This document shows positions 876-24,719 of a stretch of 64,000 nt of DNA, piece after piece. Every line of letters begins with the position of its first letter. Position 1 is the first letter of the stretch. The position numbers and the translations under genes were made by a program. Source of the DNA: an uncultured Alphaproteobacteria bacterium (GTDB taxonomy: Bacteria > Pseudomonadota > Alphaproteobacteria > Rhizobiales > Beijerinckiaceae); contig CAWJIB010000014.1 of assembly GCA_963842835.1 (NCBI GenBank), positions 22,665-86,664 of the forward strand, given 5' to 3'. The notes under the pieces were generated by a model, which saw only the letters and a program-made list of their open reading frames with translations, did no database searches and was not told the origin of the DNA.

Positions 876-3296
876 TTAGTGCGCGAGGATGCCGGCGCCC
901 TCGTCGTCGGCGGCCAGAGGCGCCGCAGCGGCCTTGGCGCTCTCTTCCCATTCGATGGCCTTCGGCTGGCGCACGAGCGCATGGGCCAGCACTTCCTCCA
1001 TCCGCGACACCGGAACGATCTCGAGGCCGTTCTTCACGGAGCTCGGGATATCCGCGAGATCCTTGGCGTTGTCCTCGGGGATCAACACCTTCTTGATGCC
1101 CCCGCGCAGCGCCGCCAGCAGCTTCTCCTTCAAGCCGCCGATCGGCAGCACGCGGCCGCGCAAGGTGATCTCGCCCGTCATGGCGACGTCGCGCCGAACG
1201 GGAATGCCCGTGAGCATGGACACGATGACCGTCGCCATCGCCACGCCCGCCGACGGCCCGTCCTTCGGCGTCGCGCCTTCGGGAACGTGGACGTGGATGT
1301 CGCGCCGATCGAACAGCGGCGGCTCGATGCCGAAATCGACCGCGCGGGAGCGCACGTAAGACGCCGCCGCCGAAATCAACTCCTTCATCACGTCCTTCAG
1401 GTTGCCGGTCACGGTCATGCGTCCCTTGCCCGGCATCATCACGCCTTCGATCGTCAACAGCTCGCCGCCGACTTCCGTCCAGGCGAGACCCGTCACCAGG
1501 CCGACCTGATCTTCCGCCTCGATCTCGCCGTAACGATACCTCGGCGCGCCGAGATATTCCGCCACGTTGGCCGCGGAGACGACGATCTTCTTCTTCTTGT
1601 TGGTGAGGATGTCCTTCACCGCCTTGCGCGCGAGATTGGAGATCTCGCGTTCGAGGTTGCGCACGCCCGCCTCGCGCGTGTAGCGGCGCACGAGCTCCAT
1701 GAGAGCGCTGTCCTCGACCACCCATTCCTTCGCATCGAGGCCGTGCTTGACCATCGAATTGGGCAGCAGGTGCTGCTTGGCGATTTCGACCTTCTCGTCC
1801 TCCGTGTAGCCGGCGATGCGGATGATCTCCATGCGGTCCATCAGCGCCGGCGGGATGTTGAGCGTATTGGCGGTGGTCACGAACATCACGCCCGAAAGAT
1901 CGTAATCGACCTCGAGATAATGGTCGTTGAACGCCGCGTTCTGCTCGGGATCGAGCACTTCGAGCAACGCCGACGACGGATCGCCGCGGAAATCCATCCC
2001 CATCTTGTCGATCTCATCGAGCAGGAAGAGCGGGTTGGAGGTCTTCGCCTTGCGCATGGACTGGATGACCTTGCCGGGCATCGAGCCGATGTACGTGCGG
2101 CGATGGCCGCGAATCTCCGCTTCGTCGCGCACGCCGCCGAGCGACATGCGCACGAATTCGCGCCCCGTCGCCTTGGCGATCGATTTGCCGAGCGAGGTCT
2201 TGCCGACGCCGGGAGGCCCGACGAGGCAGAGGATCGGCCCCGTCAGCTTGTTGGCGCGCTGCTGCACGGCCAGGTACTCGACGATGCGGTCCTTGACCTT
2301 GTCGAGGCCGAAATGATCGGCGTCGAGGATCGCCTGCGCGGCGGGCAGGTCCTTCTTGATCTTCGATTTCTTCTGCCACGGGATCGACAGCAGCCAGTCG
2401 AGATAGTTGCGCACCACCGTCGCCTCGGCGGACATCGGCGACATCTGACGCAGCTTCTTGACTTCGCCCAGCGCCTTGTCGCGCGCTTCCTTGGTGAGCT
2501 TGGTCTTCTTGATGCGATCCTCGAGCTCGGACATTTCGTCCTTGCCGTCCTCGTCGCCGAGTTCCTTCTGGATCGCCTTCATCTGCTCGTTGAGATAGTA
2601 TTCGCGCTGCGTCTTCTCCATCTGGCGCTTGACGCGCGTGCGGATGCGCTTCTCGACCTGCAGAACCGAGATTTCGCTCTCCATCAGGCCTAGGCACTTC
2701 TCGAAGCGCTTGGCGATCGAATGGATCTCGAGGATCGCCTGCTTGTCGGCGAGCTTGACCGCCAGATGCGAGGCGATCGTGTCGGCGAGCTTGCCGTAAT
2801 CCTCGATCTGGGTGACGGCCGAGACAACCTCGGGCGAAATCTTCTTGTTGAGCTTCACGTAATTCTCGAACTCGGACACCACCGAGCGCGACAAGGCCTC
2901 CGCCTCGATCGGATCGATCGGGTCGTCCGCCACCGCCTCGGCTTCCGCCTCGTAATAGCCCTCGGTCGGCAGATAGGCTTTGATTCGAGCGCGCGATTCG
3001 CCTTCGACGAGAACCTTCACGGTTCCGTCGGGCAGCTTCAGCAGTTGCAAGACTTTGGCCAGCGTGCCGGTGGCGAAGATCGCGTCGGTCGCCGGGTCGT
3101 CGTCGGCTGCGTTCAGCTGCGTGGCGAGAAGAATCGGCTTGTCCGCCTTCATGACTTCCTCGAGGGCGCGAATCGACTTTTCGCGTCCCACGAACAAAGG
3201 CACGATCATGTGCGGGAACACGACGATGTCGCGCAGCGGCAAAACCGGATAGGTTCCGAGCGATCCGGGAGCGACAGTCTTGCGGGTGGTGGTCAT
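876..3296 (-). CDS. lon: ATP-dependent Lon protease
   Basis: 806 aa. LON N-terminal domain ([15 protein letters not shown]), Walker [10 protein letters not shown], and proteolytic Ser context PKDGPSAG. Confidence 0.97.
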
Positions 3297-3565: not shown

Positions 3566-4825
3566 TCAGCCGACCTTCTCGGCGCGCTCGGAATAGATGT
3601 AGAGCGGCCTTGCTTTGCCCTCGACCACTTCCGGCCCGATCACCACTTGCTCGACCCCGTCGAGGCCGGGAAGATCGAACATCGTGTCGAGCAGAATGCC
3701 CTCCATGATCGAGCGCAGTCCGCGCGCGCCCGTGCGCCGTTCGATCGCCTTCTTGGCGATGACGCTCAGCGCCTCGTCCTGGAAGGTGAGGTCCGTGTTC
3801 TCCATTTCGAACAAGCGCTGATATTGCTTGACGAGCGCGTTCTTCGGCTCGGTCAGGATTTTCTTCAGCGCGTCCTCGTCGAGATCCTCGAGCGTCGCGA
3901 TGACCGGCAGGCGGCCGACGAATTCCGGGATCAGGCCGAACTTGAGCAGATCCTCGGGCTCGACCTCGCGGAACACCTCGCCGGTGCGCCGATCGTCCGG
4001 CGACTGGACCTTGGCGCCAAAGCCGATCGACGTGCCCTTGCCGCGCGCCGAGATGATGCGCTCGAGGCCCGAAAACGCGCCGCCGCAAATGAACAGGATA
4101 TTGGTCGTGTCGACCTGCAGGAATTCCTGCTGCGGATGCTTCCGCCCGCCCTGCGGAGGCACGCTGGCGATCGTGCCTTCCATGATCTTGAGCAGCGCCT
4201 GCTGCACGCCCTCGCCCGACACGTCGCGAGTGATCGACGGATTGTCCGACTTGCGGCTGATCTTGTCGATTTCGTCGATGTAGACGATGCCGCGCTGCGC
4301 GCGCTCGACGTTGTAGTCGGACGCCTGCAACAATTTGAGAATGATGTTCTCGACGTCCTCGCCGACATAGCCCGCCTCGGTCAGGGTCGTCGCGTCGGCC
4401 ATGGTGAAGGGCACGTCAAGAATGCGCGCGAGAGTCTGGGCGAGCAAGGTCTTGCCCGAGCCGGTCGGCCCGATCAGCAGGATGTTCGACTTGGCGAGTT
4501 CGACGTCGCTGTGCTTGGTGGCGTGATTGAGGCGCTTGTAATGATTGTGGACCGCGACGGACAGCACGCGCTTGGCTTGCGGCTGGCCAATCACGTAATC
4601 GTCGAGGACTTTGCAGATTTCGCGCGGGGTCGGAATGCCGTCCTTGCTCTTGACGAGCGCGGTCTTGCTCTCCTCGCGGATGATGTCCATGCACAATTCG
4701 ACGCATTCGTCGCAAATGAACACGGTCGGACCGGCGATGAGCTTGCGCACCTCATGCTGGCTCTTGCCACAGAAAGAGCAATACAGCGTGCTCTTGGCGT
4801 CGCCTTCGGCCTTGGCCATTGTCAT
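3566..4825 (-). CDS. clpX: ATP-dependent Clp protease ATP-binding subunit ClpX
   Basis: 419 aa. N-terminal zinc ribbon CSFCGK...CDEC, Walker A GPTGSGKT, and typical ClpX sequence throughout. Confidence 0.97.
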
Positions 4826-9402: not shown

Positions 9403-10929
9403 TCATTCGCCGAACAGCGCCCGCAGCACGCCCGGCAGCGCCTCGGGCAAATCCTCGGCAATCAATCCCGGTCCGACGGCGCGCGCGCAGGCGCCGTGCA
9501 GCCAGACCGCGGCGCTGGCCGCTTCGAACGCCGGCATGCCCTGCGCGACGAGGCCGCAGGCGAAACCCCCGAGGACATCGCCGGAGCCGGCCGTGGCGAG
9601 GGTCGGCGGCAGATCGTAACCAATCGCGGCGCGCCCATCGGGCGCCGCGACGACGCTGTCGGCGCCCTTGAAGATGACGACGGCGTTCAGCATCGCGGCG
9701 GCGGCGCGGGCGCGCGCCAGCTTGCTGGGCTGCCCGAGGATTTCGGGACGGCCGCGGAACAGCCGGGCGAATTCGCCTTCGTGCGGCGTGAGGATCGTCG
9801 CGCGAGCCTGCTGGGCGATCAGGACGGCGAGGCTCGCCGCGTCGCCGGCGAAGCTCGTCAGCGCGTCGGCGTCGAGCACGATGGCGCGCGCCGCCGCGCT
9901 CGGTTCGGCCAATGCCGCGGCGACGAGCGCGCGCGTCGCGTCGCCGACGCCGGCGCCGGGGCCGAGAAGAATGGCGTTGCGCCTGGGGTCGGCGAGCAGC
10001 GCCGAAAATCCCGCCAGCCCCGAGAAGGGCGCGACCATCACCGCCGTCGAATGGGCGGCGTTGACGAGGACCGCATCCAGGGGGCTGGCGAGCGTGACGA
10101 GGCCCGCTCCGGCGCGCAACGCGGCGCGCGCCGCCATCCGGGCCGCGCCGGTGCGATGCGCGGCGCCGGAGAGGATGAGCGCGGCGCCGCGCGAATATTT
10201 GTGCGAAGCCAAGCCGGGGCGAGGCAGCGCATCGCGCCAGATCGCCGGCGCGTTGACGAAGGCGAGCGGCGCGATGCTTCGCAGCGCGCTCGGCGCGCTG
10301 CCGATCTCCGCGAGCGCGAGGCGCCCGCACAAGGCGCGGCCCGGCAGCAGGAGATGGCCCGGCTTCAGGCGGAAGAACGTGACGCTGGCGCTCGCCTCGA
10401 CCGCTGCGCCGCGCACGGCGCCGGTTTCGCCGTCGACGCCCGAGGGGATGTCGACGCTGAGCACCGGCTTGCCCCGGCGCGCGAACGCGTTGACGGCCTC
10501 GACGCAGCGAAGCGCCGCGCCGTCGAGATCGCGCGAGAGCCCGGCGCCGAAGAGAGCGTCGACGACGAGATCGGCGGCGCTAAGATCGAGCGCCTCGGCG
10601 GGCGCGACCGGCCCCTCCCAGCGCGCCGCCGCCAGCGCGGCGTCGCCGCGCAGCGCCGCGCGCTCGCCCAGGAGGCCGAGGCTGACGCGATAGCCGCGCG
10701 CCGTGAGGAGCCGCGCGGCGACGAAGCCGTCGCCGCCATTGCCCCCCGGTCCGCACAGCGCCGCGATGCGGCCGGCGCTGCGCGCCATCCGCGCCGCTTC
10801 GTCGGCGACCGCGGCGCCGGCGCGCTCCATCAGCGCGATGCCGGGAACGCCGCCGGCGATCGTCAGCCGGTCGGCCTCGCCCATTTCGGCGGGCGTCAGC
10901 AATTCGCAGTGGCGGCGAGGATCGAGCAT
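9403..10929 (-). CDS. nnr: Bifunctional NAD(P)H-hydrate repair enzyme (epimerase / ADP-dependent dehydratase)
   Basis: YjeF-N motif GPGGNGGDG and C-terminal carbohydrate-kinase motif GSGDVLGG. The start is taken at MLDPRRHCELLTPAEM. The track ORF extends to 10965. Confidence 0.88.
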   Translation of the reverse strand: MLDPRRHCELLTPAEMGEADRLTIAGGVPGIALMERAGAAVADEAARMARSAGRIAALCGPGGNGGDGFVAARLLTARGYRVSLGLLGERAALRGDAALAAARWEGPVAPAEALDLSAADLVVDALFGAGLSRDLDGAALRCVEAVNAFARRGKPVLSVDIPSGVDGETGAVRGAAVEASASVTFFRLKPGHLLLPGRALCGRLALAEIGSAPSALRSIAPLAFVNAPAIWRDALPRPGLASHKYSRGAALILSGAAHRTGAARMAARAALRAGAGLVTLASPLDAVLVNAAHSTAVMVAPFSGLAGFSALLADPRRNAILLGPGAGVGDATRALVAAALAEPSAAARAIVLDADALTSFAGDAASLAVLIAQQARATILTPHEGEFARLFRGRPEILGQPSKLARARAAAAMLNAVVIFKGADSVVAAPDGRAAIGYDLPPTLATAGSGDVLGGFACGLVAQGMPAFEAASAAVWLHGACARAVGPGLIAEDLPEALPGVLRALFGE

Positions 10930-11045
10930 GGCGCGAAGAGTGGCGCCGCGACCGCGCGCCGGCAAGGGCCGGCCGGGGGAATTGAAATTTGGCGCTTTTC
11001 ATCGCGCGAATTTCTGCTATATCGCGCCCTCGCGATCCGGCCTGA

Positions 11046-11122
11046 TCCCCGATAGCTCAGCTGGTAGAGCATTCGACTGTTAATCGAATGGTCGCAGGTT
11101 CGAAGTCCTGCTCGGGGAGCCA
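11046..11122 (+). tRNA. tRNA-Asn (anticodon GTT)
   Basis: Acceptor TCCCCGA/TCGGGGA; D-arm GCTC-AGCTGGTA-GAGC; anticodon arm TTCGA-CTGTTAA-TCGAA (GTT); T-arm GCAGG-TTCGAAGT-CCTGC; encoded CCA. By hand-folding the T-loop is 8 nt rather than 7 (see findings). Confidence 0.85.
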
Positions 11123-11246
11123 CCATTTTCAGGGCGTTAGCGCCTGGGCCGCCAACCAAACCCAGGGCCGCTGCGCGAGCGGGACAACGACACGGACAAC
11201 ATTTCCCCAAGCTCGTACTTGGCACCTTCTCGCAGCGGTGACCCGA

Positions 11247-12137
11247 ATGTCTGATGATCCCTATGCGGACCGCAAGAGCCTGACGTTTGAGCAAGCTGAG
11301 GGCATTGACCCTTTGCCCACTCAATTGCAGCCGAAACGGATTTCTCAAGAACTCACTGCGGTACTATGGGCAGCCGTGTACGCGAGCCTGACTAGAACGA
11401 TCAGGCGCGATGATTTGGGCTTTTCGGTTGCTACTATTGGTCCGGAATGGTCGAAGATTATGTTTGACTACCACGTGTTTCACGAACACATGGCTGCGGA
11501 CGACTACAATAACGATGCAGGCCGACTAATACAGACAGCAAAAGGAATAATGTATTCTGGTCAATATTTTCGCATATTTGGTTTTATACAATTTGTATTG
11601 CGACACGAGAACCGACCTCCACAGTTTACCGAGGCAATTGAGGGAGCTCTGAAATTGGCTCGCGCGGGTTACAGAATTGTTGATTGGGATACTATCATTC
11701 CTATTGCGTCGGAGGCCGAGCGATCGACGCTTGAGCGTGCTTTTGCCGATCTCGCGACGTCGGAATTTCACGGCGCGCGAGCGCATTTGCGCGAGGCTGG
11801 AATCACCCTTACCGCCGGAGATTACACGGCGAGCATTCGCGAGAGCATCCACGCCGTCGAGTCCGTCGCGCGCAGCCTTGAGGCGGCTGGCAAACTCAGC
11901 AACGCTTTAGCTATCCTGGAGAAATCCGCAGCAATTCATGGCGGTCTGAAAAGCGGATTCTTGTCGATCTACGGCTATACGAGTGACGAACAGGGTATAC
12001 GACACCCACTTATTGACGGCCCCTCGGCAAAGGTCGACGAGACGGACGCACTATTCATGATTGGAGCGTGCGCCTCCTTTGTATCCTACCTCATCGGCAA
12101 AGCTCGCTCAGCCGGCTTGCTGAAAAAGAAGAATTGA
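11247..12137 (+). CDS. AbiJ-NTD4 / HEPN-like helical protein (putative abortive-infection family), function unknown
   Basis: 296 aa from the first ATG outside the tRNA. The N-terminus (SLTFEQAEGIDPLPTQLQPKRISQELTAVLW) and C-terminal half (YTASIRESIHAVESVARSL...LKSGFLSIYGYTSDEQGIRHPL) resemble AbiJ-NTD4 + HEPN-like proteins as I recall them. GC content is markedly lower than in the flanks. Confidence 0.5.
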   Translation: MSDDPYADRKSLTFEQAEGIDPLPTQLQPKRISQELTAVLWAAVYASLTRTIRRDDLGFSVATIGPEWSKIMFDYHVFHEHMAADDYNNDAGRLIQTAKGIMYSGQYFRIFGFIQFVLRHENRPPQFTEAIEGALKLARAGYRIVDWDTIIPIASEAERSTLERAFADLATSEFHGARAHLREAGITLTAGDYTASIRESIHAVESVARSLEAAGKLSNALAILEKSAAIHGGLKSGFLSIYGYTSDEQGIRHPLIDGPSAKVDETDALFMIGACASFVSYLIGKARSAGLLKKKN

Positions 12138-12171
12138 GAGAAACGGGAACAGCCGCTCGACGCAATCGAAA

Positions 12172-12206
12172 CGGCCGCCGATTCGCCTGGCGGCCGGCCG
12201 GCTTTT
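12172..12206 (+). terminator. Hairpin between the convergent islet genes (possible terminator)
   Basis: Stem CGGCCGCC (12172-12179) / GGCGGCCG (12189-12196) with a 9-nt loop. A TTTT run sits at 12203-12206, not immediately adjacent to the stem. Confidence 0.35.
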
Positions 12207-12228
12207 CGGGGCGCGCTTCGACGCCGCG

Positions 12229-13452
12229 TCATCCGTCTCGCGCCGTGTCGTCGCTCGCAAGGAACGGTGCGATCGAGCGCATGAACGGCGGCAAGCCATC
12301 CTTCTCGAACTGAGCCATTGACGCCTTGCGATTCACCTCCATGCGCTCGAGGAGTTCCCTCGCGGCCGCTTCCTTCGCAGGTGGAAACGGTGCCGCCATT
12401 ATTTCGTCGAGCGTACCGGACAGCTGTCGCTCGACGCCGGAGAACGAGAAGTCGCTCTCCCAGCCGTGCTCGAAAACGTAGCTCAAGACGGCGAGGCAAC
12501 CGGGGGGAAGCGCGTCGCCCTTCCGGGCCTGGGAGTAGAGCCATAGGATGACATCCGCGATCTGGATCCCTGGGCACTGGGAATCCTCGAGCACGCTGAA
12601 GTTGCTGCCGGGTACCTTCTGCATGCGATAGCTCTCGCCGACCCAGCGGATCTCCTCGGGTGACGCATTGGCGAACAGCCCGTGCCAAGCCTCGAGCGTT
12701 TTCTGGAATTCACTCTGCTGGTCGTGAGAGATTCTCGCCATCGGACGGTTCCAGCGCCTGCAGAAATCGTCCAAACCGCTCAGCAGATTCGAAAACGCGA
12801 CGAGATTGGGGAAATGCCCCTGCCTCGCGGTCTTCTTGTCAGTGTGGATCTGGATCGCCCTCGGATGGGTCCGAGCCCATTCAAGGCCCTCTCCAATCAC
12901 TTGCCGCGATCTCTCGTCGGGAACCCGGCCGATGTTCCGCTGCAACGCCTCACAAACCTGCGGCAGCATATCGTATGCCTTCCTCTCGTTAGGTTCGAGG
13001 ATGCATTTCCAGAACCGCCTCGCTGTGTCCTCGTCGATCATGACCGCCAGTTTGAATGCGAAGATCAGGCGCAATGGTCGGATATTGTAATGGTGCCAGC
13101 CGACGGCCGCGTTCTCTCCAGAATCCAAGAGGGAGTCGAACATCTTGCTTGCGAGCAAATACTTCTTTTCCACGCGCGAGACGAAGAAGTGCGCCCTCGC
13201 GCTCTCGAAGAGCCGAATTAGGTCCGTCGCGACGCTTTCCAGGCGGTAGACGCCCAGATCCTTGCCGTGCAATGAGCCCGCGCCGAATGCCGCCGCGATG
13301 TCGCGCGTGCGCTTCCCGAAGGCGACATCGAAGTCTCCTTTGGTGATTAGCGCGCCCGTGAAGAAATCCGGCTGATCACGGTCGAATAGATTATGACCCG
13401 TGTTTCCGGTCTCATCCACGTACGCGTAGATAGGCAACTTCGATTCGCCCAT
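12229..13452 (-). CDS. DUF3800 domain protein with C-terminal extension, function unknown
   Basis: 407 aa from MGESKLPIYAYVDETGN. Shows the DUF3800 hallmarks: an N-terminal (Y/I)xDE(S/T)G acidic motif and a C-terminal GIQIADVILW (QxADxxxW). The track ORF start at 13500 adds 16 aa. Confidence 0.65.
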   Translation of the reverse strand: MGESKLPIYAYVDETGNTGHNLFDRDQPDFFTGALITKGDFDVAFGKRTRDIAAAFGAGSLHGKDLGVYRLESVATDLIRLFESARAHFFVSRVEKKYLLASKMFDSLLDSGENAAVGWHHYNIRPLRLIFAFKLAVMIDEDTARRFWKCILEPNERKAYDMLPQVCEALQRNIGRVPDERSRQVIGEGLEWARTHPRAIQIHTDKKTARQGHFPNLVAFSNLLSGLDDFCRRWNRPMARISHDQQSEFQKTLEAWHGLFANASPEEIRWVGESYRMQKVPGSNFSVLEDSQCPGIQIADVILWLYSQARKGDALPPGCLAVLSYVFEHGWESDFSFSGVERQLSGTLDEIMAAPFPPAKEAAARELLERMEVNRKASMAQFEKDGLPPFMRSIAPFLASDDTARDG

Positions 13453-13658
13453 TCCCAGATTCCGCTCTCGGCCGATGAGGCGGGACAGATTACCACGCAT
13501 GCGAGGGCACCGTCGCGTGGCGTTCCCGCCTTTCGCGGCAGCGCTCTGCGCGAGACAAGCAAAAGGCGAGAGACGCCTTTAAGCTGCGACAGCAGTTGCT
13601 CGCTCCCTGAGCCGAGCGCGCTGCTATCGCCGGCCATGCCCGCGACCAAGCGCCGCCG

Positions 13659-13835
13659 CCCCCCAATCGACGGCCGCTTCATAACGACAAAGCCCGCGCG
13701 CTCGAGGTGCTCCACAAGCCGCTTGGCGACGATCGCCGCCATCATCTCCCCAGCGTCGCGCTCGCGCTTGCGACCGTCGAAGCGCAGTGCGAACGCCAGG
13801 GCGTCGGCGAGGTCTTCGGGCGAGGCGGGCGTAAG
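13659..13835 (-). pseudogene. Possible relic of a small conserved alphaproteobacterial ORF (no canonical start, no nearby stop)
   Basis: In-frame peptide LTPASPEDLADALAFALRFDGRKRERDAGEMMAAIVAKRLVEHLERAGFVVMKRPSIGG. It looks like a short conserved hypothetical protein I recall from Rhizobiales. No ATG, GTG or TTG precedes it, and the frame runs on to 13347 into the DUF3800 gene. Confidence 0.25.
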
Positions 13836-13858
13836 GCAATCGCGCGCTCCGCCCCTGC

Positions 13859-15472
13859 TCAGCCCGCCGGACGCCCGCCAGCCGATTCGGCGCCCGGCGC
13901 GCCGTGCAGGTAGCGCTGGCGCAATTCGCGCTTGAGCAGCTTTCCGCTCGGGTTTCTCGGGAGATGGTCGACGAAGATGACGCGTTTGGGGACCTTGAAA
14001 TGGGCCATCGACCGGGCGCAATGTTCGACCACCGCCTCTTCGGCCAGCGTCTGGCCGGCCTTGACGACGACAACCGCGGCGACCGCCTCGATCCAGCGCG
14101 GGTCGGGAAGGCCGATCACCGCCACTTCCGACACTTGCGGCAGGCGATAGATCGTTTCCTCGACTTCGCGGCTGGCGACGTTCTCGCCGCCGCTCTTGAT
14201 CATGTCCTTCAGGCGATCGACGACGGTGATGTAGCCCTCGTCGTCGACGGTGGCGAGATCGCCGCTGTGAAACCAGCCGCCGGCGAAGGCGGCCGCCGTT
14301 TTGTCCGGCGCGTCGTAATAGCCCGACAACAGATGCGGCGAACGATGCACGATTTCTCCGATCTCGCCGGGAGACACGTCCTCCATCGCGGCGTTCACCA
14401 CGCGGGTCTCGACATTGAGCGCGGGCTTGCCCGCCGATCCGGCTTTGCGCAATTGATCTTCCGGCTTCAGCACCGTGGCGAGCGGCGCGATTTCGGTCTG
14501 GCCGTAAAAGTTCCACAGCCGCACCTGCGGCAATCGGCGCTGGAGCTCGAGCAGAACCTCGACCGGCATGATCGAGGCGCCGTAGTAGCCCTTGCGCAAG
14601 CTCGATAGGTTGGCCCGGTCGAAGGCGGGCGAGCGCAACATGCCGATCCAGACGGTCGGCGGGGCGAAGAAAGACGTCACGCCGTGGGTTTCGATCAGCG
14701 ACAGGATCAAATCGGGGACGGGCTTGCCGGTGACGACGCTCGTCGCGCCGAGATAGATCGCCGGGCCGAGGAAAACGTCGAGCTGCGCGCAGTGATAAAG
14801 CGGCAGCGCGTGCAGGACCAGATCGTCGTCCGACATGCCGCCGTCGACGATGCAGCTCACATATTGCCACATGACCGCATCATGCGTGAGCATCGCGCCC
14901 TTGGGCAGAGATTCGGTGCCGCTGGTGTAGATGATCTGCGCCAGATCCCGGCCGTCGACCGCGACCGCCGGCGCGGACGCGTCGGCGTCCAAGAGATCGT
15001 CGAACGTCGTGATGTCGGCCGGCGGCTCGGACCGCTCCTCCGCCGGCAGCCAGACGAAGCTGCGGACGGCGCAGCCCGTCGCGGCCGCCACCCGCCCGGT
15101 CTCGACGAATTCCGGGCCGACGGCGAGGATCTTGGCGCCTGAGCTGGCGAGAATGAAGCGGATCTCTTCGGGGTTGAGCATGAAATTGATCGGCACGAGG
15201 ACCGCGCCGATCCGGGCGATCGCAAAACGAATCGCCACGAAGGCGTGGGAATTGCGCGCGAGCACCGCGATCCGCTCGCCCTTGGCGGCGCCGAGCCCGA
15301 TGAGGCCGCGGCCGAGCCGATTGCACAGCGCGTCGAGTTGCGCATACGTCCAGACCGTGTCGCCGCAGCGAATCGCTGTGCGGCTAGCGAAGCGCCGCGC
15401 CGAACGGCGCAACAGGTCGCCGATGCTCTGCTCTCTCGCGCGTCGAACGGCGCCCTCGACATCCTCGCTCAT
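13859..15472 (-). CDS. AMP-dependent acyl-CoA synthetase/ligase
   Basis: 537 aa from MSEDVEGAV, with GGAGG about 8 nt upstream. AMP-binding motif YTSGTESLPKGA, plus GWFHSGD and the C-terminal PRNPSGKLLKREL. Confidence 0.9.
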   Translation of the reverse strand: MSEDVEGAVRRAREQSIGDLLRRSARRFASRTAIRCGDTVWTYAQLDALCNRLGRGLIGLGAAKGERIAVLARNSHAFVAIRFAIARIGAVLVPINFMLNPEEIRFILASSGAKILAVGPEFVETGRVAAATGCAVRSFVWLPAEERSEPPADITTFDDLLDADASAPAVAVDGRDLAQIIYTSGTESLPKGAMLTHDAVMWQYVSCIVDGGMSDDDLVLHALPLYHCAQLDVFLGPAIYLGATSVVTGKPVPDLILSLIETHGVTSFFAPPTVWIGMLRSPAFDRANLSSLRKGYYGASIMPVEVLLELQRRLPQVRLWNFYGQTEIAPLATVLKPEDQLRKAGSAGKPALNVETRVVNAAMEDVSPGEIGEIVHRSPHLLSGYYDAPDKTAAAFAGGWFHSGDLATVDDEGYITVVDRLKDMIKSGGENVASREVEETIYRLPQVSEVAVIGLPDPRWIEAVAAVVVVKAGQTLAEEAVVEHCARSMAHFKVPKRVIFVDHLPRNPSGKLLKRELRQRYLHGAPGAESAGGRPAG

Positions 15473-15723: not shown

Positions 15724-18306
15724 TCAATCCTCCTCCTCGCCCGCGAACGCCCCGCGGTCCACTCCGTTTCCGATCAGGATTTCGCGTTTGCCCGCGTGGT
15801 TCGCCGGTCCGACGACGCCCTCCTGCTCCATGCGCTCGACCAGCGAGGCGGCCTTGTTGTAGCCGACGGAGAGGCGTCGCTGGATGTAGCTCGTCGAGCA
15901 TTTGCGGTCGCGCAGCACGATGTTGACCGCGCGGTCGTAATAGTCGCCCGCCTCCTCGGCGTCCATCGAGCCGAGCGATCCGGCCGGCGCGGCCTCGACG
16001 TCGTCGTCCTCCGAGGAATCCTCCTCGGTGATCGCGGTCAGATATTCCGGCTGGCCCTGGGTCTTGAGATGGGCGACGATCTTTTCCACTTCGTCGTCGG
16101 CGACGAAGGGGCCGTGCACGCGCGAAATGCGCCCTCCGCCCGCCATGTACAGCATGTCGCCCTGGCCGAGCAGCTGCTCGGCGCCTTGCTCGCCCAGGAT
16201 CGTGCGGCTGTCGATCTTGCTCGTCACCTGGAAGGAGACGCGGGTGGGGAAATTCGCCTTGATGGTGCCGGTGATGACGTCGACCGAGGGGCGCTGGGTC
16301 GCCATGATGAGATGGATGCCCGCGGCGCGCGCCATTTGCGCGAGGCGCTGGATCGCGCCCTCGATGTCCTTGCCGGCGACCATCATCAGGTCGGCCATTT
16401 CGTCGACGAAGACGACGATGTAGGGCAGTTCGGAGAGATCCATCTCCTCCTGCTCGTAGATCGCCTCGCCGGTCTCCCGGTCGAAGCCGGTCTGCACCGT
16501 GCGCGTGATCGCCTCGCCCTTGGCGCTCGCCTCGGCGACGCGCGCATTGAAGCCGTCGATGTTGCGCACGCCGACCTTCGACATCTTCTTGTAGCGGTCC
16601 TCCATTTCGCGCACCGCCCATTTCAGCGCGACCACCGCCTTCTTGGGATCGGTGACGACGGGGGTCAGCAGATGCGGGATGCCGTCATAGACGGAAAGCT
16701 CCAGCATCTTCGGATCGACCATGATGAGCCGGCATTGCTCGGGCTTGAGGCGATAGAGCAGGCTCATCACCATCGTGTTGATCGCCACCGACTTGCCCGA
16801 GCCGGTGGTGCCGGCGACCAAGAGATGCGGCATGCGCGCGAGATCGACGATCACCGGTTCGCCGCCGATCGTCTTGCCGAGCGCGATGGCGAGGCGGTGC
16901 TTGGATTTCTCGAAATCCTGGCTCGCCAGCAATTCGCGTAGGTAAACCGTCTCGCGCCGCTGGTTGGGCAGTTCGATGCCGATGGCGTTGCGTCCCTGGA
17001 CGACGGCGACGCGCGCCGAGATCGCCGACATCGAGCGCGCGATGTCGTCAGCGAGGCCGATGACGCGCGACGACTTGATGCCGGGCGCCGGTTCGAGTTC
17101 GTAGAGCGTGACGACCGGGCCTGGCCGCACGTTGATGATTTCGCCCTTGACGCCGAAATCGTCGAGCACGCCCTCCAGGAGCCGCGCGTTCTGCTCCAGC
17201 GCGTCTTCGGAAATCTTCGAGGCGACGAGCTTCTTGGGCTCGGCGAGCATGGCGAGCGGGGGCAATTGATAGGCGCCGCGGTCGAGCAGCGAGAGCTGCG
17301 CTTCGCTGACGGCGCGGCGTCCGACCTTGAGCGCGCCGGCCGGCGCGGCGACGCGCGAGAGCGGCGCGCCGGCGCCCAGGCCGGCCGAGGGCGGCGTCGA
17401 GGCCGCGCTCGCGCCCTGACGGGTCATCGGCGGCTCGACGCGCGCCTCGGATCGCGGCGCGAACGCGGCGAGGTCGGCGGCGAAATCGTCGGGTTCGCGG
17501 CCGAGCCAGGGCGCGCGCGGCGCCGGGCCGGAGGACGCCGGGCGTGTCGTCTTGCGAGTGAAAAAGCGGCGCAGCGCGCTTCTGACGCTCAGCGCGGTGT
17601 GGATCACGGCGCCGATCGAGACGAGTCCGAGACCCGGCTCTCCGTCGCTGTCTTCGTCGTCGCCGTCATAGCGGTCCGGCGCGCGCCGCGTCGGCGCGGT
17701 CTTGGCCGTGGGCGCCGCGTCGTCGGCGTCGGCGTCCGCGGAGGGCATCAGGTGGTATCCCGCCGCGGCCGTCAGGGCGAGGATGGCCAGCCCCGCCAGC
17801 GTCAGTCCGACGATCGCCAAGCCGAGCGCGGACCCGGCGAGAACATGTCGCGGCGTCCACAGCACGGCGTCGCCGACGACGCCGCCGAGGCCGGTGGGCA
17901 GCGGCCAGCTCGCCGGCGCAGGCAGCAACGAGGCGCAACCGGCCGCCAGCGTCGATCCGGCGAGCCAGAGCGCGAGTTTGCTTCGGACCCGTTCGAGGCG
18001 CTTGAGCGTGACGAGCCGCCAGCCCCAGAATGCGGGCGCGATCAGCGCGACGACGCAGGCGAGTCCGAAAAATTGCATTGCGATATCGGCGACGACCGCG
18101 CCGGGGCGGCCCAGGAGATTGTGGATCGGCGTCGCCGTCGCGTGATTGAGGCTGGGGTCGGCGACCGACCATGTCAGCAGCGCGGCGCAGGAGGCCGCGA
18201 GGCTGGCCAGCACGCAGACGCCAATCAGCTCGGCCACCCGTCGTTTCGGCACTTCGCGCAGCGAGTCGGGCAGATAGTCGAAGAACGTGAATGTCGTGGT
18301 ACGCAT
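15724..18306 (-). CDS. ftsK: DNA translocase FtsK
   Basis: 860 aa. N-terminal TM helices, a Pro/Ala-rich linker, Walker A GTTGSGKS and a C-terminal gamma wHTH domain ([24 protein letters not shown]). Confidence 0.96.
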
Positions 18307-18390
18307 AGGGCAACGCTCTACCGCCGCCGCGGCAAGGGCCGCGCTCGCCGATGAACCTAGGCGCGCGGAGTTAATGTCCGCCTAACCTTA

Positions 18391-18579
18391 ATGAAGCTGG
18401 TCCATTTCGGCCCGGCCGAAATGGCGCAGGCGAGACCGCCCGTCTATGTCGTCAACGAAATCGAGGTGAAGGATCCTGCGGCGTTCAAGCGATACGCGGA
18501 CGCACAGAGCGAACTCAAGGCGGCCCGAGACCAGGCGTCGATTTTCCACGCGTTCGCGGTCGAGGGCTTGCCGAACTAA
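18391..18579 (+). pseudogene. Truncated DUF1330-like ORF
   Basis: 62-aa ORF. PPVYVVNEIEVKDPAAFKRYA resembles a DUF1330 N-terminus, and ...AFAVEGLP resembles its C-terminal end. It is roughly half the length I recall for the family. Confidence 0.3.
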
Positions 18580-18645
18580 GCGACGCACGGCCTGTCCGCC
18601 CCGTTCGGCCGATTTCGCCGGCCCCGGGCCGACGACCCGATCACA

Positions 18646-18721
18646 CGAAAAAAAGGACGCCCGAGGGGCGTCCGAGTTTGGGAGGAAACGGGGGATCCGG
18701 CGGCGCCAGGCCGCCGGATCC
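18646..18721 (-). terminator. Tandem hairpins / rho-independent terminator downstream of amtB
   Basis: Perfect 12-bp stem GGATCCGGCGGC (18693-18704) / GCCGCCGGATCC (18710-18721). Then GGACGCCC (18655-18662) / GGGCGTCC (18666-18673), followed on the minus strand by a T7 run. Confidence 0.8.
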
Positions 18722-18728
18722 GATTGCC

Positions 18729-20243
18729 TTACTGCACGACTTCGCCGTGCAGCGCGAGGTCGAGGCCGTCGCGCTCGATGTCGTCGCTGACGCGCAGGCC
18801 GATCGCCACGTCGATGACCTTGAGGATGATCAGCGAGACGATCCCGTCGTAGACGATGACGGTGCCGATGCCGATCAGCTGATTGATCACCTGGCCCGGA
18901 TTGCCCTCGATGAGGCCGGAGTGGCCGCTGTACTGGTTGATCGCGAAGACGCCGGTCAGGATCGCGCCGATGATGCCGCCGATGCCGTGGACGCCGAAGC
19001 AATCGAGCGCGTCGTCATAGCCGAAGGCGTGCTTCAGGCTGGTGGCGCCGAGGTAGCAGCCGACGCCGCAGGCGACGCCGATCACCATCGATCCGATCGG
19101 GCCGACATAACCCGAAGCCGGGGTAATGGCGACGAGGCCGGCGACGGCGCCCGAGCAGATGCCGATGACGGTCGGCTTGCCGCGATGCGCCCATTCCACG
19201 AACATCCAGGTCAGCGCCGCGACAGCGGTGGCGATCTGCGTGACGGTCATCGCCATGCCCGCCTGCACGCCCGCGCTCACCGCCGAACCCGCGTTGAAGC
19301 CGAACCAGCCGACCCACAGGAGCCCAGCGCCGATGAAGGTGTAGACCATGTTGTGGCCGGGGCCGGAGTCGCGGCGCTTGCCGAGCATCAAGGCGCACAT
19401 CAGGCCGGCGACGCCCGCGTTGATGTGCACGACGGTGCCGCCGGCGAAGTCGAGCACAACCTTCCAACCCGTGAAGTTGCCCTTGTCGTCGACATTGGCG
19501 GTGGAGAACATGCCATCCGGGCCCCAGACCCAATGCGCGATCGGCGCGTAAACGAGGATCGCCCACAGGCCGATGAACCACAGCATTGCCGAGAACTTCA
19601 TGCGCTCCGCGAAGGCGCCGGCGATGAGGGCGGGCGTGATGATCGCGAAGGTCATCTGGAAGCACATATAGACGGTCTCGGGGATCGTCGGCGCGAGGCT
19701 ATTGGGATTGCCGATGCCGCCGTTGTTCACGTCGCTCAGGATGTTCTGCAGGAACGCCCGGCTGAACCCGCCGATGAACGCTCCGCCGGAGGTGAACGAC
19801 AGGCTGTAGGTGACCACCGCGTAGAGGACGGTAACCAGCGCCGTGATCGCGAAGCTGGTCATGACGGTGTCGCCGACGTTCTTCTTGCGCACCATGCCGC
19901 CATAGAACAGGCCGAGGCCGGGGATGGTCATCATCAGAACGAGCGCGACGGAGGTCAGCATCCACGCCGTGTCGCCGCCCGAGGGCGTGCAGTTCGTCAT
20001 GACCGCGGGGACGGCCGGGACGGCCGCATATTTGTCGGTGGCGTCGATAGCCGCGACGGCGGCGGCGCAAGCGGGCGTTGGCGGCGGAGCCGGCTTGGCG
20101 GCGGGGGCGGGAGCGGGCGCCGTGGCTGCGGGCGCTGCAGCGGGCGCGTCGTCCGCCCGCGACGGGGCGGGAGCGGCGAAGCCGATCAACGCGGCGATCG
20201 CCAGCGCCGGCGCCAGGCCAGTGAAAAACCGAGACAGTTTCAT
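18729..20243 (-). CDS. amtB: Ammonium transporter AmtB with signal peptide and Ala/Pro-rich N-terminal linker
   Basis: 504 aa from MKLSRFFTGLAPALAIAAL. Amt family motifs (DFAGGTVVH, GFNAGSA). Located immediately downstream of glnK. Confidence 0.93.
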   Translation of the reverse strand: MKLSRFFTGLAPALAIAALIGFAAPAPSRADDAPAAAPAATAPAPAPAAKPAPPPTPACAAAVAAIDATDKYAAVPAVPAVMTNCTPSGGDTAWMLTSVALVLMMTIPGLGLFYGGMVRKKNVGDTVMTSFAITALVTVLYAVVTYSLSFTSGGAFIGGFSRAFLQNILSDVNNGGIGNPNSLAPTIPETVYMCFQMTFAIITPALIAGAFAERMKFSAMLWFIGLWAILVYAPIAHWVWGPDGMFSTANVDDKGNFTGWKVVLDFAGGTVVHINAGVAGLMCALMLGKRRDSGPGHNMVYTFIGAGLLWVGWFGFNAGSAVSAGVQAGMAMTVTQIATAVAALTWMFVEWAHRGKPTVIGICSGAVAGLVAITPASGYVGPIGSMVIGVACGVGCYLGATSLKHAFGYDDALDCFGVHGIGGIIGAILTGVFAINQYSGHSGLIEGNPGQVINQLIGIGTVIVYDGIVSLIILKVIDVAIGLRVSDDIERDGLDLALHGEVVQ

Positions 20244-20280
20244 TGTTTGAGACTCCGATTGAAATGGGATGGGGCCGCGC

Positions 20281-20841
<561 letters not shown>

Positions 20842-20845
20842 TTAA

Positions 20846-20859
20846 TTTAGGCGCCTAAA
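20846..20859 (-). terminator. AT-rich perfect palindrome just after the tesB stop (possible terminator)
   Basis: TTTAGGCGCCTAAA, flanked by A/T runs, 7 nt downstream of the tesB stop codon. Confidence 0.4.
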
Positions 20860-20865
20860 AATTAA

Positions 20866-21747
20866 TCAGGGCTGCCACTCGCGCTGCAGCGGGCGCATCA
20901 AGCCTTCTTGTGCGACGCTCGCCGCAAGGACGCCGGCGCGGGTATAAAGCAGGCCCCGCGTCAGGCCACGCGCTCCGTGCGCATTCGGACTGTCCTGGAC
21001 ATAGAGAAGCCAATCGTCGGCGCGGAACGGCCTATGCAGCCACAAGGCATGGTCCAGGCTGGCCATTTGTATGCGGCCGTCCGACACCGTGTGGCCGTGC
21101 GCGACCAGCGCCGTGTCGAGCAACGTCATGTCCGAGAGATAGGCGAGCGCGGCCCGGTGAATGGCGGGATCGTCGGGAAGCGCGCCGCCGATGCGGATCC
21201 ACAGCGATTGCTTGGGCTCGCGAACGACTCCGGGAGCGGGCGGAGCGTATCGCGTGAGATCGAGCGGGAGAAATTCGATCGGCTGGATTCGCTCGAGCAG
21301 GCCCTGCAGCCGCTTTTGCGCCTTTTCGCCGAGCAGCGCGGCCGCCGCTACGGGCGCGACGAGGCGATCGGGTTCGGGCGCGGGCGGCATCGGCAATTGG
21401 TGGTCGAACCCCTCCTCCTCGACGTGGAACGAGGCGGACAGCACAAAAATCGCCTCGCCGCGTTGCCGGGCGACGACGCGTCGCGTCGTAAAGCTCCGGC
21501 CGTCGCGAATGCGATCCACTTCGAACAGGATCGGTTCGAGCGGATCGCCGGCAAGAATGAAATAGGCGTGCAGAGAATGCGGCGCGCGCTCCTCGACTGT
21601 GCGCGAGGCGGCGACGAGCGCCTGGGCGATCACCTGACCGCCGAACACCCGTTGCCACCCGTTTGGCGGGGAGCGGCCGACAAACCGGTCCGGGCCGGTC
21701 GGTTCGATGTCGAAGAGGGCGACGAGGTCGGCGGCGGTGACGGGCAT
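20866..21747 (-). CDS. tesB: Acyl-CoA thioesterase II
   Basis: 293 aa from MPVTAADLVALFDIEP. RVFGGQVIAQAL and the double hot-dog TesB pattern. tesB next to glnK-amtB matches the arrangement in E. coli. Confidence 0.88.
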   Translation of the reverse strand: MPVTAADLVALFDIEPTGPDRFVGRSPPNGWQRVFGGQVIAQALVAASRTVEERAPHSLHAYFILAGDPLEPILFEVDRIRDGRSFTTRRVVARQRGEAIFVLSASFHVEEEGFDHQLPMPPAPEPDRLVAPVAAAALLGEKAQKRLQGLLERIQPIEFLPLDLTRYAPPAPGVVREPKQSLWIRIGGALPDDPAIHRAALAYLSDMTLLDTALVAHGHTVSDGRIQMASLDHALWLHRPFRADDWLLYVQDSPNAHGARGLTRGLLYTRAGVLAASVAQEGLMRPLQREWQP

Positions 21748-22163
21748 GAGGGTCTCGATCGGAGCGGCCGTTGTGCGGCGCGGCGCCCGCCTCGTCAACC
21801 CCCGAGACGCCGGCCCGACGCCCATCGACAAGGCGCGTTGGCGCTTCAGGATTGCCCGACAGGCCAAAACAGCGCGGTCTGGCCCCGAAGTCGGCGGCCT
21901 TTGCGGGATGTCGGGTGAATCCGGCCGACAGTTCTCCTTAGGGCTCTTTGATAGAGCAGGATTCTTATCGGAAGACCAGATTCCGCTTTTGAGGACTCTC
22001 GCTAAACGACGTTGACCGCGCCTTAACCATTCGCCGCGCCAATGCGAATGCCGGCGGATTTCCGCGTTTGGTTTAACCTCGTGGAAGCTGCGCGCCCTTT
22101 AGGTTGGCGCTACTCCGTGCGTCATCGCGAACGTAGCGGAAATTCAACGGTCGGGAGAAAGTC

Positions 22164-22328
22164 ATGATCGGGACGCTCAAAACATTCGTCGCCGACGAAT
22201 CCGGCGCCACCGCGATCGAATACGCGTTGATCGCCGCGTTGATCGCCGTCTTTATCATTGGTTCCTTGTCGGTTCTCGGCACCAGCATCAGCAGCGAGTT
22301 CACCGAAGTCTCCAGCGCCCTTAAGTAA
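22164..22328 (+). CDS. flp: Flp family type IVb pilin
   Basis: 54-aa ORF, below the track length cutoff: MIGTLKTFVADESGATAIEYALIAALIAVFIIGSLSVLGTSISSEFTEVSSALK. Flp prepilin motif G/ATAIEY. RBS GGGAGA lies 6 nt upstream. Confidence 0.85.
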   Translation: MIGTLKTFVADESGATAIEYALIAALIAVFIIGSLSVLGTSISSEFTEVSSALK

Positions 22329-22364
22329 GCGCAAAAAGGCTCAAAGGGCCCTTCGAAACCTCCG

Positions 22365-22393
22365 GCGCCGCCCCCTCTTCGTCGGCGCTTTTT
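22365..22393 (+). terminator. Possible terminator after flp
   Basis: GCGCCG (22365-22370) / CGGCGC (22383-22388) with a 12-nt loop, followed by TTTTT. Confidence 0.4.
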
Positions 22394-22807
22394 CTTCTTT
22401 TCGCGCCGGCGCCGCGCGGCGGACGTAACCGCGGCTGGACCACGACGCAATCATGAAGGATCGCGTATCCCGCCGCGCGATCCGTGTGATATTTCACCGA
22501 TAAGCGATTGGCGGGACTTACGCTATTTTCTCGCGCTCGCGCGCCGGCGCGCTGTCGACGGCGGGTCAATTGCGCGTCGATCACGCCATCGTCGGCCGGC
22601 GCGGCGCCGGCGGCGTCAACCCCCGATGCGCGGCCTTGAGGCCGGCGCAGACGCCCGGCGGGGAAAGGCGACCGATCGCGCCGAAGGGCGCGCCCCGATG
22701 GGAATTTTCGCTCAAAAGCGGAAGACTTTAGATGCTCGCCGTAACCCTCCCGTAATCCCTGCCTGTCACAATCGGCTCTTCAGGAACGGTTTTCGCTCGC
22801 GGATCGC

Positions 22808-23347
22808 ATGAGCTCTTTACGCAAGATCATCGACGCCGGGCTTCGCGCCGCCAGAGCGTTCGCGCGTCGGCAGGACGGCGGCCCGGCCTCCGAATTCGCC
22901 CTCGTCGCGCCGTTCTTCATCGTGATGATGTTGGCGACGCTGCAGGTGGCGGTCATCTATCTCGCCAACGCCTTTCTCGAGACCGCGGCGGAAGACGCCG
23001 CCCGTCTGGTGCTGACTAATCAGACGGGGTCGATGACCGCGGCGCAGTTCCGGACGGCGCTGTGCAACAACGTCACCGCGCTGTTCAATTGCAGCAACAT
23101 CATGATCGGTCTGGCGCCGGCGACGTCGACCACTTCGATCAGCACTGCGGCTCCTACGTTCACGACGAGCGGAACCTTGTCCGCCACCCTCCCCTACACG
23201 CAACCGACGCCCGGGCAGATCGCGGTGCTCCAGGTTCTTTATCAATGGCCGGTCATCGGCCTGCCGCTCGGGTTCAATTTCGCCAACCTCGGCAACGGCA
23301 CCTATCTCATGATGTCCACCCAGGTCTTCATCGTCGAGGCGAATTGA
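22808..23347 (+). CDS. TadE/TadF-like pseudopilin protein
   Basis: 179 aa. N-terminal TadE motif GGPASEFALVAPFFIVMMLATLQ. Confidence 0.75.
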   Translation: MSSLRKIIDAGLRAARAFARRQDGGPASEFALVAPFFIVMMLATLQVAVIYLANAFLETAAEDAARLVLTNQTGSMTAAQFRTALCNNVTALFNCSNIMIGLAPATSTTSISTAAPTFTTSGTLSATLPYTQPTPGQIAVLQVLYQWPVIGLPLGFNFANLGNGTYLMMSTQVFIVEAN

Positions 23348-23985: not shown

Positions 23986-24210
23986 AGGGCCGGGAAACGA
24001 ACCGGCGCCTTCCGTCCGTCTCATTGCGCGCTATGCGCGACGATGCCGACGTGGGGCTTCTGACGACGGCTCCTCGATGCGTCGAATTTTCGACGAGCTC
24101 CGACACGACTGGGCGAGTGGCTCCGCCGCCGTTGGCGACCCGTCCGTGGCGGGCTCCGGCAATCACGCAATCGTTCTCCTATTGTTGAGATCGGACAGAT
24201 ACGCCTCGTT

Positions 24211-24657: not shown

Positions 24658-24719
24658 GGAGACGTGACCATATCGTAGCGCGAGGGCGAAGGAGGTCGCC
24701 CTCCGGCCTGCCGTTCGCC

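Follow-up and report, generated by a model that had tools for sequence, protein, structure and literature searches.

What does the short stretch of unusual composition that lies directly 3' of a tRNA-Asn(GTT) gene in contig CAWJIB010000014.1, from an uncultured alphaproteobacterium, actually hold: one two-gene defence system, or two unrelated genes that came to rest side by side? The stretch lies in the 64 kb of DNA analysed here (the window) and carries two genes, called A and B throughout, which an earlier note made from the sequence alone had read as a candidate defence module. The reading that we favour, with a probability of roughly 0.6, is that of a small variable islet, reaching from 11123 to about 13858, in which two single-gene candidate anti-phage modules were acquired independently, each dispensable to the other. 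The islet is thus an ordinary small defence islet holding two already known families, and it is the fallback interpretation of the earlier note, two single-gene modules, that the evidence favours. The elements in question are the following.

9403-10965, minus strand: nnr, divergent from the tRNA-Asn gene, with the NCBIfam YjeF N- and C-terminal domains
11046-11122, plus strand: tRNA-Asn(GTT), found by ARAGORN and as the Rfam tRNA at 69.4 bits
11123-11246: left junction and region upstream of A, where synteny with relatives ends, without an attachment-site (att)-like repeat
11247-12137, plus strand: gene A, 296 aa, PADLOC PDC-S32 and Pfam AbiJ_NTD4
11286-11747, plus strand: AbiJ_NTD4 domain of A, residues 14-167 (Pfam PF18863)
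11760-12116, plus strand: predicted HEPN-like helical domain of A, residues about 172-290 (conserved columns, Foldseek)
12138-12228: convergent spacer of 91 bp between A and B, with a G+C-rich hairpin at 12172-12194
12229-13452, minus strand: gene B, 407 aa, a long-form DUF3800 gene (Pfam PF12686)
13560-13850, minus strand: small gene, probably a remnant, recognized by homology in the interval that separates B from the acyl-CoA synthetase gene

Both gene starts were set by alignment with homologs, and the longest possible open reading frame (ORF) in the frame of B extends to 13500. These coordinates agree with the layout as first described, namely a tRNA gene at the islet edge followed by two convergent genes of 296 and 407 aa that are 91 bp apart.

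The evidence that carries our reading comes from the neighborhoods of relatives of the two genes, drawn from genomes, metagenomes, plasmids and IMG/VR. No relative of A was found at any of the 70 metagenome loci with a relative of B (47 of these B genes are full-length and 24 of the loci have at least 6 kb of flank), and among all fetched loci the 24 with A and the 71 with B do not overlap. A re-check with hidden Markov models (HMMs) of 28 A loci against 90 DUF3800 loci recovered a single overlap, in Nitratireductor. With the window included, a DUF3800 neighbor is therefore present at 2/29 A-family loci, the window and the Nitratireductor islet, and missing at the other 27, while an A partner is absent at 71/71 long-form B loci; a defence module defined by the pairing, as the earlier note had it, is not supported by these counts. 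The neighbors of A relatives (n=123) include phage genes, with DUF3800 not among the families listed, and the plasmid-borne AbiJ-NTD4 genes of Leptospira and Aquicella have no DUF3800 neighbor. Homologs of A and homologs of B are each solitary in their genomes. A conserved partner of B was also sought and rejected, as the immediate neighbors at five B loci are unrelated, both in all-against-all comparison and against the window.

The overlapping locus, in Nitratireductor sp. XY-223 (SPNT01000005.1; L199, 6002-7891), places an A homolog (53% identity) beside a gene for a 275-aa DUF3800 protein, the two being divergent and forming a two-gene islet of low G+C (0.46-0.56 vs 0.62-0.68) between housekeeping genes. 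This independent islet raises the alternative that A and B are the two halves of one functional system, a HEPN-type RNase paired with an RNase H-like nuclease, in which one may regulate or license the other after the manner of a toxin-antitoxin or sensor-effector pair, and in which the DUF3800 partner is exchangeable between subfamilies. The fact that A and B are immediate neighbors in an islet of two genes speaks for it, as do an AbiJ_NTD3 protein encoded within 3.3 kb at one B locus and the service of DUF3800 as an accessory partner elsewhere, in type VII retrons and at Cas12a2 and VI-F loci (PMC7736814, PMC10910872, PMC12669027). However, apart from the missing partners counted above, the Nitratireductor DUF3800 protein is remote from B (blastp E of 0.16) and has only the DE[TS]G strand in common with it, this being all that hhalign aligns. 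Two homologs of this short DUF3800 protein lack an A neighbor, one lying beside a CAP12-PCTIR TIR protein and one beside ParDE. Moreover, the genes are convergent in the window and divergent in Nitratireductor, neither arrangement being an operon, and the third-codon-position G+C (GC3) of A and B differs by 0.22. Such a system is accordingly improbable. A shade less probable still is a loose immune system in which AbiJ_NTD4/HEPN and DUF3800 proteins swap partners; were it true, the window (long DUF3800, convergent) and Nitratireductor (short DUF3800, divergent) would be two independent instances of it, and the RNase H-like protein would make or remove the nucleic-acid signal by which the HEPN RNase is turned on or off. 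As a separate observation, at locus L203 (3866-5801) a CAP12-PCTIR TIR-domain gene is directly followed, on the same strand, by a short DUF3800 gene, and this could be another DUF3800 partnership.

Composition likewise separates the two genes. The G+C fraction is 0.75-0.79 in nnr, drops to 0.46 at 11300-11750, recovers to 0.55-0.63 up to about 13400 and is again 0.65-0.69 from about 13550, so that the segment 11123-13858 has 59.2% G+C vs 66.1% in the whole window. The abrupt change reported in the earlier note is thus real, and its hand counts of 21/60 at 11521-11580 and 32/60 at 12961-13020 are exact. However, the departure from the host is unequal: against a GC3 of 0.848 +/- 0.037 in host genes (n=35), that of A is 0.549 (z = -8.0), whereas that of B is 0.770 (z = -2.1), at the low edge of the host range. 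On account of these values, A is clearly foreign in composition and B mildly atypical, and the common origin supposed for the pair does not fit such strongly differing genes. Given the GC3 gap, a B gene without a conserved neighbor and a pairing that is not conserved, the simplest reading is that A and B were acquired separately as two single-gene cassettes. Their adjacency would then reflect the general clustering of defence genes.

The intergenic stretches offer no further link between the two genes. The spacer hairpin noticed earlier is indeed present (GGCCGCC...GGCGGCC at 12172-12194, followed by GCTTTTCG), and it may act as a terminator common to A and B. We did not retain it as a supported terminator, because shuffled sequence folds as well as the spacer does (z = -0.03 on the plus strand and -1.5 on the minus strand); nor was the hairpin called by a terminator scan. 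No sigma-70-like site was found upstream of A in 11123-11246, a region that is not conserved at other A loci, and blastn and nhmmer searches with three intergenic stretches as queries, run against every A and B locus, recovered nothing conserved, the flanks of B varying between loci. A hidden non-coding RNA at the locus was rejected after these searches and after Rfam scans of 10500-14500 (E <= 10) and of 9 B loci.

Gene A belongs to a large and uniform family, with 1511 homologs that are nearly all about 295 aa in length. It is matched end to end by both PADLOC HMMs for PDC-S32, PDLC04997 (E 4e-57, 192 bits, residues 10-287 on model positions 5-282 of 285) and PDLC04996 (E 2.9e-47), and by no other PADLOC model. 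Hence, A is not without a name, being by itself already catalogued as a PADLOC candidate, and no other gene of the window specifically matches a defence (candidate) model of the catalogue. The PDC systems are 145 predicted candidates that were nominated by their embedding within BREX, DISARM or type I restriction-modification loci (bioRxiv 10.1101/2024.01.29.577857). The HMM check proposed in the earlier note was run for both proteins and upholds both family assignments: Pfam PF18863 AbiJ_NTD4 matches A with 43.3 bits (cut-off 34) over residues 14-167 and profile positions 3-151 of 152, the domain being found in 72 of 73 family members, and the corresponding result for B is given below.

An alignment of these 73 members reveals two conserved blocks in the C-terminal third of A, namely SIRESIHAVES (R198, E199, S200, H202 and E205) and YGYTSDExGIRHP (Y242, G243, D247, G250, R252 and H253). 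Of these residues E199, S200, Y242, G243, G250, R252 and H253 are invariant, and R198, H202, E205 and D247 are conserved in at least 90% of the sequences. The AlphaFold (AF2) model of A has a mean predicted local distance difference test score (pLDDT) of 87.3, mostly above 90 in the AbiJ_NTD4 domain, and consists of two domains with a low-confidence linker between them. In a Foldseek search of the PDB its best match is 1ufb (probability 1.00, target-normalized template modelling score (TM-target) 0.64, root mean square deviation 3.8 A over 132 columns), and the other top matches are also HEPN structures: 1wol, the sacsin HEPN domain 3o10, 2q00, 4nqf, 1o3u, 2hsb and AbiV 9bj7. Residues 171-296 have no Pfam match even at E <= 10, a single A homolog matches Pfam Abi_C at E 0.049, which is under the cut-off, and profile and sequence searches of A against PDB sequences returned nothing. 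By these family matches A is a PDC-S32 member with an AbiJ_NTD4 N-terminus, and by the model it has a predicted HEPN-like C-terminal domain. The term 'HEPN-like' is reasonable for the modelled fold, whereas 'HEPN RNase' would go a step beyond it, and the AbiJ_NTD4 domain is presumed to be a sensor or regulatory domain.

The surroundings of A relatives are those of mobile DNA. They occur on 18 IMG/VR contigs, in several cases no more than about 100 bp from where the contig stops, and Rhizobium phage RHEph01 has one at the end of its genome; among the genes that they adjoin are those for Fic, terminases, integrases and repressors. PDC-S32 relatives are thus common prophage cargo.

The product of gene B matches Pfam PF12686 DUF3800 with 24.3 bits (cut-off 21) over profile positions 1-148 of 149. 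These positions are stretched over residues 9-308 of B, which implies large insertions in the DUF3800 domain. An alignment of 77 sequences shows that the hallmarks of the family are invariant, D13-E14 in YVDETGNTG and Q297-x-x-D300, as are R93-V-x-K96, D110-S-G-E-N114, P215-N216, Q246 and W331/D334-F-S; H213 and D244 reach at least 90% conservation, and the C-terminal tail is conserved too (SMAQYExDGLPPFMR). In the AF2 model (pLDDT 89.5, predicted template modelling score 0.85) a beta-alpha core encloses a helical block of about 115 aa at about residues 119-234 and is followed by long C-terminal helices, in a tail of about 90 aa. The order of strands and helices is compatible with an RNase H fold, and against BFVD the model matches a predicted phage DUF3800 protein (probability 1.0, TM-target 0.62). 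An exhaustive profile search recovered 1019 clusters (50% identity) at E <= 1e-3, of which 294 score at E <= 1e-30. Since the clusters are mostly of 370-400 aa and are matched over their full length, the long-form DUF3800 proteins of about 380-400 aa are a coherent subfamily. No PADLOC model matches B.

DUF3800, which the earlier note counted among proteins without assigned biochemistry, does have a context in the literature. It is a predicted RNase H(2)-like nuclease (PMC7736814, PMC10910872), serves as the effector of retron type VII (PMC7736814), and is an accessory at Cas12a2/a3 and VI-F loci (PMC10910872, PMC12669027, bioRxiv 10.64898/2026.01.16.699850); DUF3800 genes also adjoin eleven unexplained RNA motifs, Rfam DUF3800-I to XI (Weinberg et al. 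2017, PMC5737381).

Two further observations on B may be recorded here. Sequence and profile searches of B against the PDB returned designer PPR proteins only. The B-family profile aligns with them at E 1.6e-12, a score inflated by their identical repeats, and we set this homology aside; the match corresponds to one helical hairpin around HFPNLVAFSNLLSGL, at about residues 175-230 within the helical insert. Apart from this PPR-like hairpin, no TPR was detected above threshold in B. The two closest B homologs (78-80% identity; L091, 8001-9029; L092; L093; L094, 147-1423) are called as split genes, of 342 + 22 aa and 365 + 60 aa, the 60-aa piece matching the C-terminal tail of B, and they reflect either a frameshift, decay in metagenome contigs or sequencing error.

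How firmly can B be tied to defence? We scanned 141 ORFs within 3.3 kb of B relatives at 26 distinct loci. The PADLOC matches include HamB (Hachiman; E = 0), PDC-S06 (3.5e-177), PDC-S11 (1.7e-154) and a CBASS cyclase (4e-140), as well as a type III methyltransferase and restriction enzyme, DrmMII and LmuB, whereas a control scan of 46 window ORFs gave only generic cross-matches of the Lon/FtsK/ClpX type, the best at 1.6e-57. Pfam identifies AbiJ_NTD3, DUF3644, an ABC-3C component, type IV secretion system (T4SS) coupling proteins and ordinary metabolic genes among the same neighbors. On plasmids, B relatives lie beside VapBC, Phd, AbiEii, insertion sequence (IS) elements and integrases. The association of B with defence is thus real in kind, and the link of both families to defence or mobile-element neighborhoods, as first asserted, is borne out. 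The cross-matches of the control scan are to the BrxL, mad8/IetA and SspH/HerA models (E down to 1.6e-57) and probably stem from Lon, ClpX and FtsK-type genes (876-3296, 3566-4825 and 15724-18306), the Lon and ClpX assignments being made by ORF size only.

The same neighborhoods suggest a different interpretation of B, namely that A stays a defence candidate and B is non-immune, serving mobile elements or nucleic-acid housekeeping, for example in the maintenance of plasmids or integrative and conjugative elements, in the processing of element-encoded RNA or in the removal of primers or R-loops. Its nearness to defence genes would then reflect common residence in variable regions. Relatives of the long form are present in 1832 PLSDB plasmid records, of which 1057 are conjugative, mostly from E. 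coli, Klebsiella and Salmonella. The plasmid protein has 377 aa and 28% identity to B over residues 8-351 (L088, 7001-8443, and L205, 6001-7438, on Klebsiella and E. coli plasmids); it is found in 337/5426 complete E. coli genomes, almost always on plasmids, and a conserved ORF of 94-97 aa comes after its gene, usually with vapBC nearby. This, together with the T4SS coupling proteins and IS elements that adjoin B relatives, the want of a PADLOC model, the lack of any match of B in cultured phage genomes and the nearly host-like composition of B, agrees with a non-immune role. On the other side, strong bona fide defence neighbors recur at several independent loci, toxin-antitoxin and Abi genes are also among the neighbors, the literature describes DUF3800 proteins elsewhere as effectors of retrons and as CRISPR accessories, and chromosomal copies are solitary, set among housekeeping genes and not within any element. 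We regard a non-immune B as possible but unlikely, and retain B as a candidate anti-phage module.

A few B loci deserve mention in their own right. The plasmid gene, whose enterobacterial products include WP_000545983.1 and WP_004213075.1, is annotated only as 'DUF3800 domain-containing protein'. In Bradyrhizobium (L085, 9227-9470) a B homolog with 60% identity ends about 170 bp from a tRNA gene, so that placement beside a tRNA is not unique to the window. At L094 (1472-4103) two genes, of 259 aa and 615 aa, come after a B homolog; the longer one has a faint QueC-like match, and this gene set may be another defence-type cassette.

How did the islet come to lie where it does? The closest genomes are those of uncultured Alphaproteobacteria near Roseiarcus, and in 16/16 of the closest loci examined the pair of nnr and tRNA-Asn is kept, making it the conserved anchor of the locus. 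Homology with relatives stops at the tRNA 3' end, at 11122-11145 (blastn of L001, L029, L016, L009 and L010 against the window; synteny was established by blastn, since at such a high G+C content tblastx could not be used without low-complexity filtering). None of A, B, the small ORF and the acyl-CoA synthetase gene is present at any of 80 related nnr/tRNA-Asn loci. The foreign insertion proposed in the earlier note is supported by this absence and by a composition that is foreign strongly in A and weakly in B. The idea of other islands at the same tRNA flank in relatives was rejected, the G+C there being mostly host-like.

The flank has also been rearranged. The block 15724-26494, with ftsK (15724-18306) at one end and a TadG-like gene (24720-26399) at the other, is in the opposite orientation in three relatives (L001, L009 and L010), and there the end that matches window position 26494 abuts the tRNA-Asn 3' end. 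This orientation implies that the window carries an inversion of about 11-15 kb relative to them, with breakpoints at about 11122 and about 26494, the first being exactly the left border of the islet. The gene lolA is the usual downstream neighbor of ftsK; in the window it follows the other breakpoint (26639-27412), and the two genes are thus apart. The earlier note had found no integrase, transposase or repeat of the tRNA end, and our searches agree: the last 17 or 26 nt of the tRNA have no second copy in the 64 kb at up to 3 mismatches, a general repeat search gave chance-level matches only, and a tblastn probe of limited sensitivity recovered no recombinase or transposase homologs. With neither an integrase nor a tRNA-end repeat, the islet was probably not delivered by a tRNA-targeting integrative element that is still recognizable.

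On the right side lies the small ORF at 13560-13850. Over 56 aa it is 57-61% identical to annotated hypothetical proteins, about 80 aa long, that are encoded in imuB/dnaE2 error-prone polymerase cassettes on Acetobacteraceae plasmids. There is no ATG, GTG or TTG between the stop codon of the acyl-CoA synthetase gene (acs) and the homologous part, and the frame continues to 13347. The ORF is probably a remnant of a small conserved gene, and it likely marks the right edge of the variable segment. It is conceivable in this light that the whole islet is decaying cargo, with one or both genes non-functional, the residue of an integrative element since lost or of the rearrangement at this site. The missing integrase and att repeat, the remnant-like ORF without a start codon, the inversion breakpoint at the locus and the seemingly frameshift-split state of the two closest B homologs would all suit such a history. 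Nevertheless, the ORFs of A and B are intact and full-length with respect to their own families, the window copies keep all invariant residues, and both AF2 models are confident. We consider decay of the islet improbable.

The reading of two separate single-gene modules has its own difficulties, and the following points weigh against it. All PDB matches of A in Foldseek have E values of at least 0.36. The family of A (73 sequences) has no conserved R and H 4-6 residues apart, as the canonical HEPN motif Rx4-6H would have, its conserved pairs being R198-x3-H202 (at least 90%) and the adjacent, invariant R252-H253; the earlier designation of its C-terminus as HEPN-like stands at the level of fold and not at that of the motif. 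Foldseek of B against the PDB gave no significant structure, and the RNase H fold of B therefore rests on published predictions (PMC7736814, PMC10910872) and on motif logic. Raw PADLOC HMM matches can be housekeeping genes and not defence genes, and the cross-matches to housekeeping ATPases make the defence enrichment around B a qualitative one; many B loci are in fact flanked by ordinary housekeeping genes. The second islet with A and a DUF3800 gene, in Nitratireductor, exceeds what a null expectation of random genes would give. Finally, both PDC-S32 and the solitary DUF3800 proteins are predictions only.

From the architectures, conservation and folds described above we infer how the two modules might act, including their activities, triggers and immune phenotype. 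In A, the AbiJ_NTD4 domain would sense a phage cue, or would hold the C-terminal domain inactive until the cue appears. The HEPN-like domain would then act as an RNase that cuts cellular and phage RNA, leading to growth arrest and abortive infection, with a putative active site made up of R198/E199/S200/H202 and R252/H253. AbiV is a HEPN Abi protein that acts by RNA cleavage and growth arrest, and the mechanism of AbiJ is not established (PMC13064643). B would be a metal-dependent nuclease of the RNase H fold, with D13-E14 on the first strand, D110, D244/Q246 and Q297xxD300 as the proposed catalytic or metal-binding residues. Its helical insert and C-terminal tail may recognize the substrate or trigger, and its most likely target would be nucleic acid derived from an invader, for instance a structured RNA or an RNA:DNA hybrid. 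That the two genes converge on a common hairpin would simply reflect the way in which the cassettes came to lie end to end.

The locus itself is of little weight, being a typical small defence islet with both families catalogued. The long-form DUF3800 proteins are more instructive: they constitute a sizeable family (294 clusters) that recurs beside bona fide defence systems and has no model in the defence catalogues queried. Plasmids in about 6% of the complete E. coli genomes carry them, which offers a native and tractable system for tests, and this family with its E. coli plasmid representative is the most useful lead to emerge from the locus. In the case of PDC-S32, the departure of the conserved residues from the HEPN Rx4-6H rule is relevant to the design of mutagenesis.

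Comparison with known systems places each part of the islet. Gene A has the same length and the same single-gene organization as PDC-S32, the single-gene PADLOC candidate (Payne et al., bioRxiv 10.1101/2024.01.29.577857), without structural difference, and this membership supplies a label and not a mechanism. It is unlike lactococcal AbiJ and the AbiJ-like HEPN proteins (Anantharaman et al. 2013), as Pfam Abi_C does not match it and it has Rx3H and RH where Rx4-6H is expected.

B has the same domain as the retron VII and TPR-DUF3800 proteins, with the N-terminal DE and the C-terminal QxxD, and like the retron VII and CRISPR-associated DUF3800 genes it belongs to a family with a defence-related genomic context. 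It differs from the retron- and Cas-linked proteins in its insert, its tail and its solitary gene, its only neighbors being A and the small ORF remnant. Unlike the retron VII DUF3800 proteins, which lack the Q of QxxD (PMC7736814), B keeps this residue; no reverse transcriptase was found nearby, none of the 46 window ORFs matches a PADLOC retron model, and 10500-14500 has no Rfam retron RNA. Likewise, no Cas effector is present among the 46 window ORFs, and B has no TPR call, unlike the CRISPR-associated TPR-DUF3800 proteins. The function of the DUF3800 genes next to DUF3800-associated RNAs (PMC5737381) is thought to involve a nearby non-coding RNA; Rfam DUF3800-I to XI were not found in 10500-14500 at E <= 10, where only the tRNA and its antisense chance match appear, nor at 9 loci of B relatives.

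As for the islet as a whole, it is unlike tRNA-integrated islands in that neither an integrase nor a second copy of the tRNA 3' end was found and its flank is an inversion breakpoint. It nevertheless resembles tRNA-anchored islands in lying directly 3' of a tRNA gene, in its foreign composition, in its absence from relatives and in its defence-type cargo.

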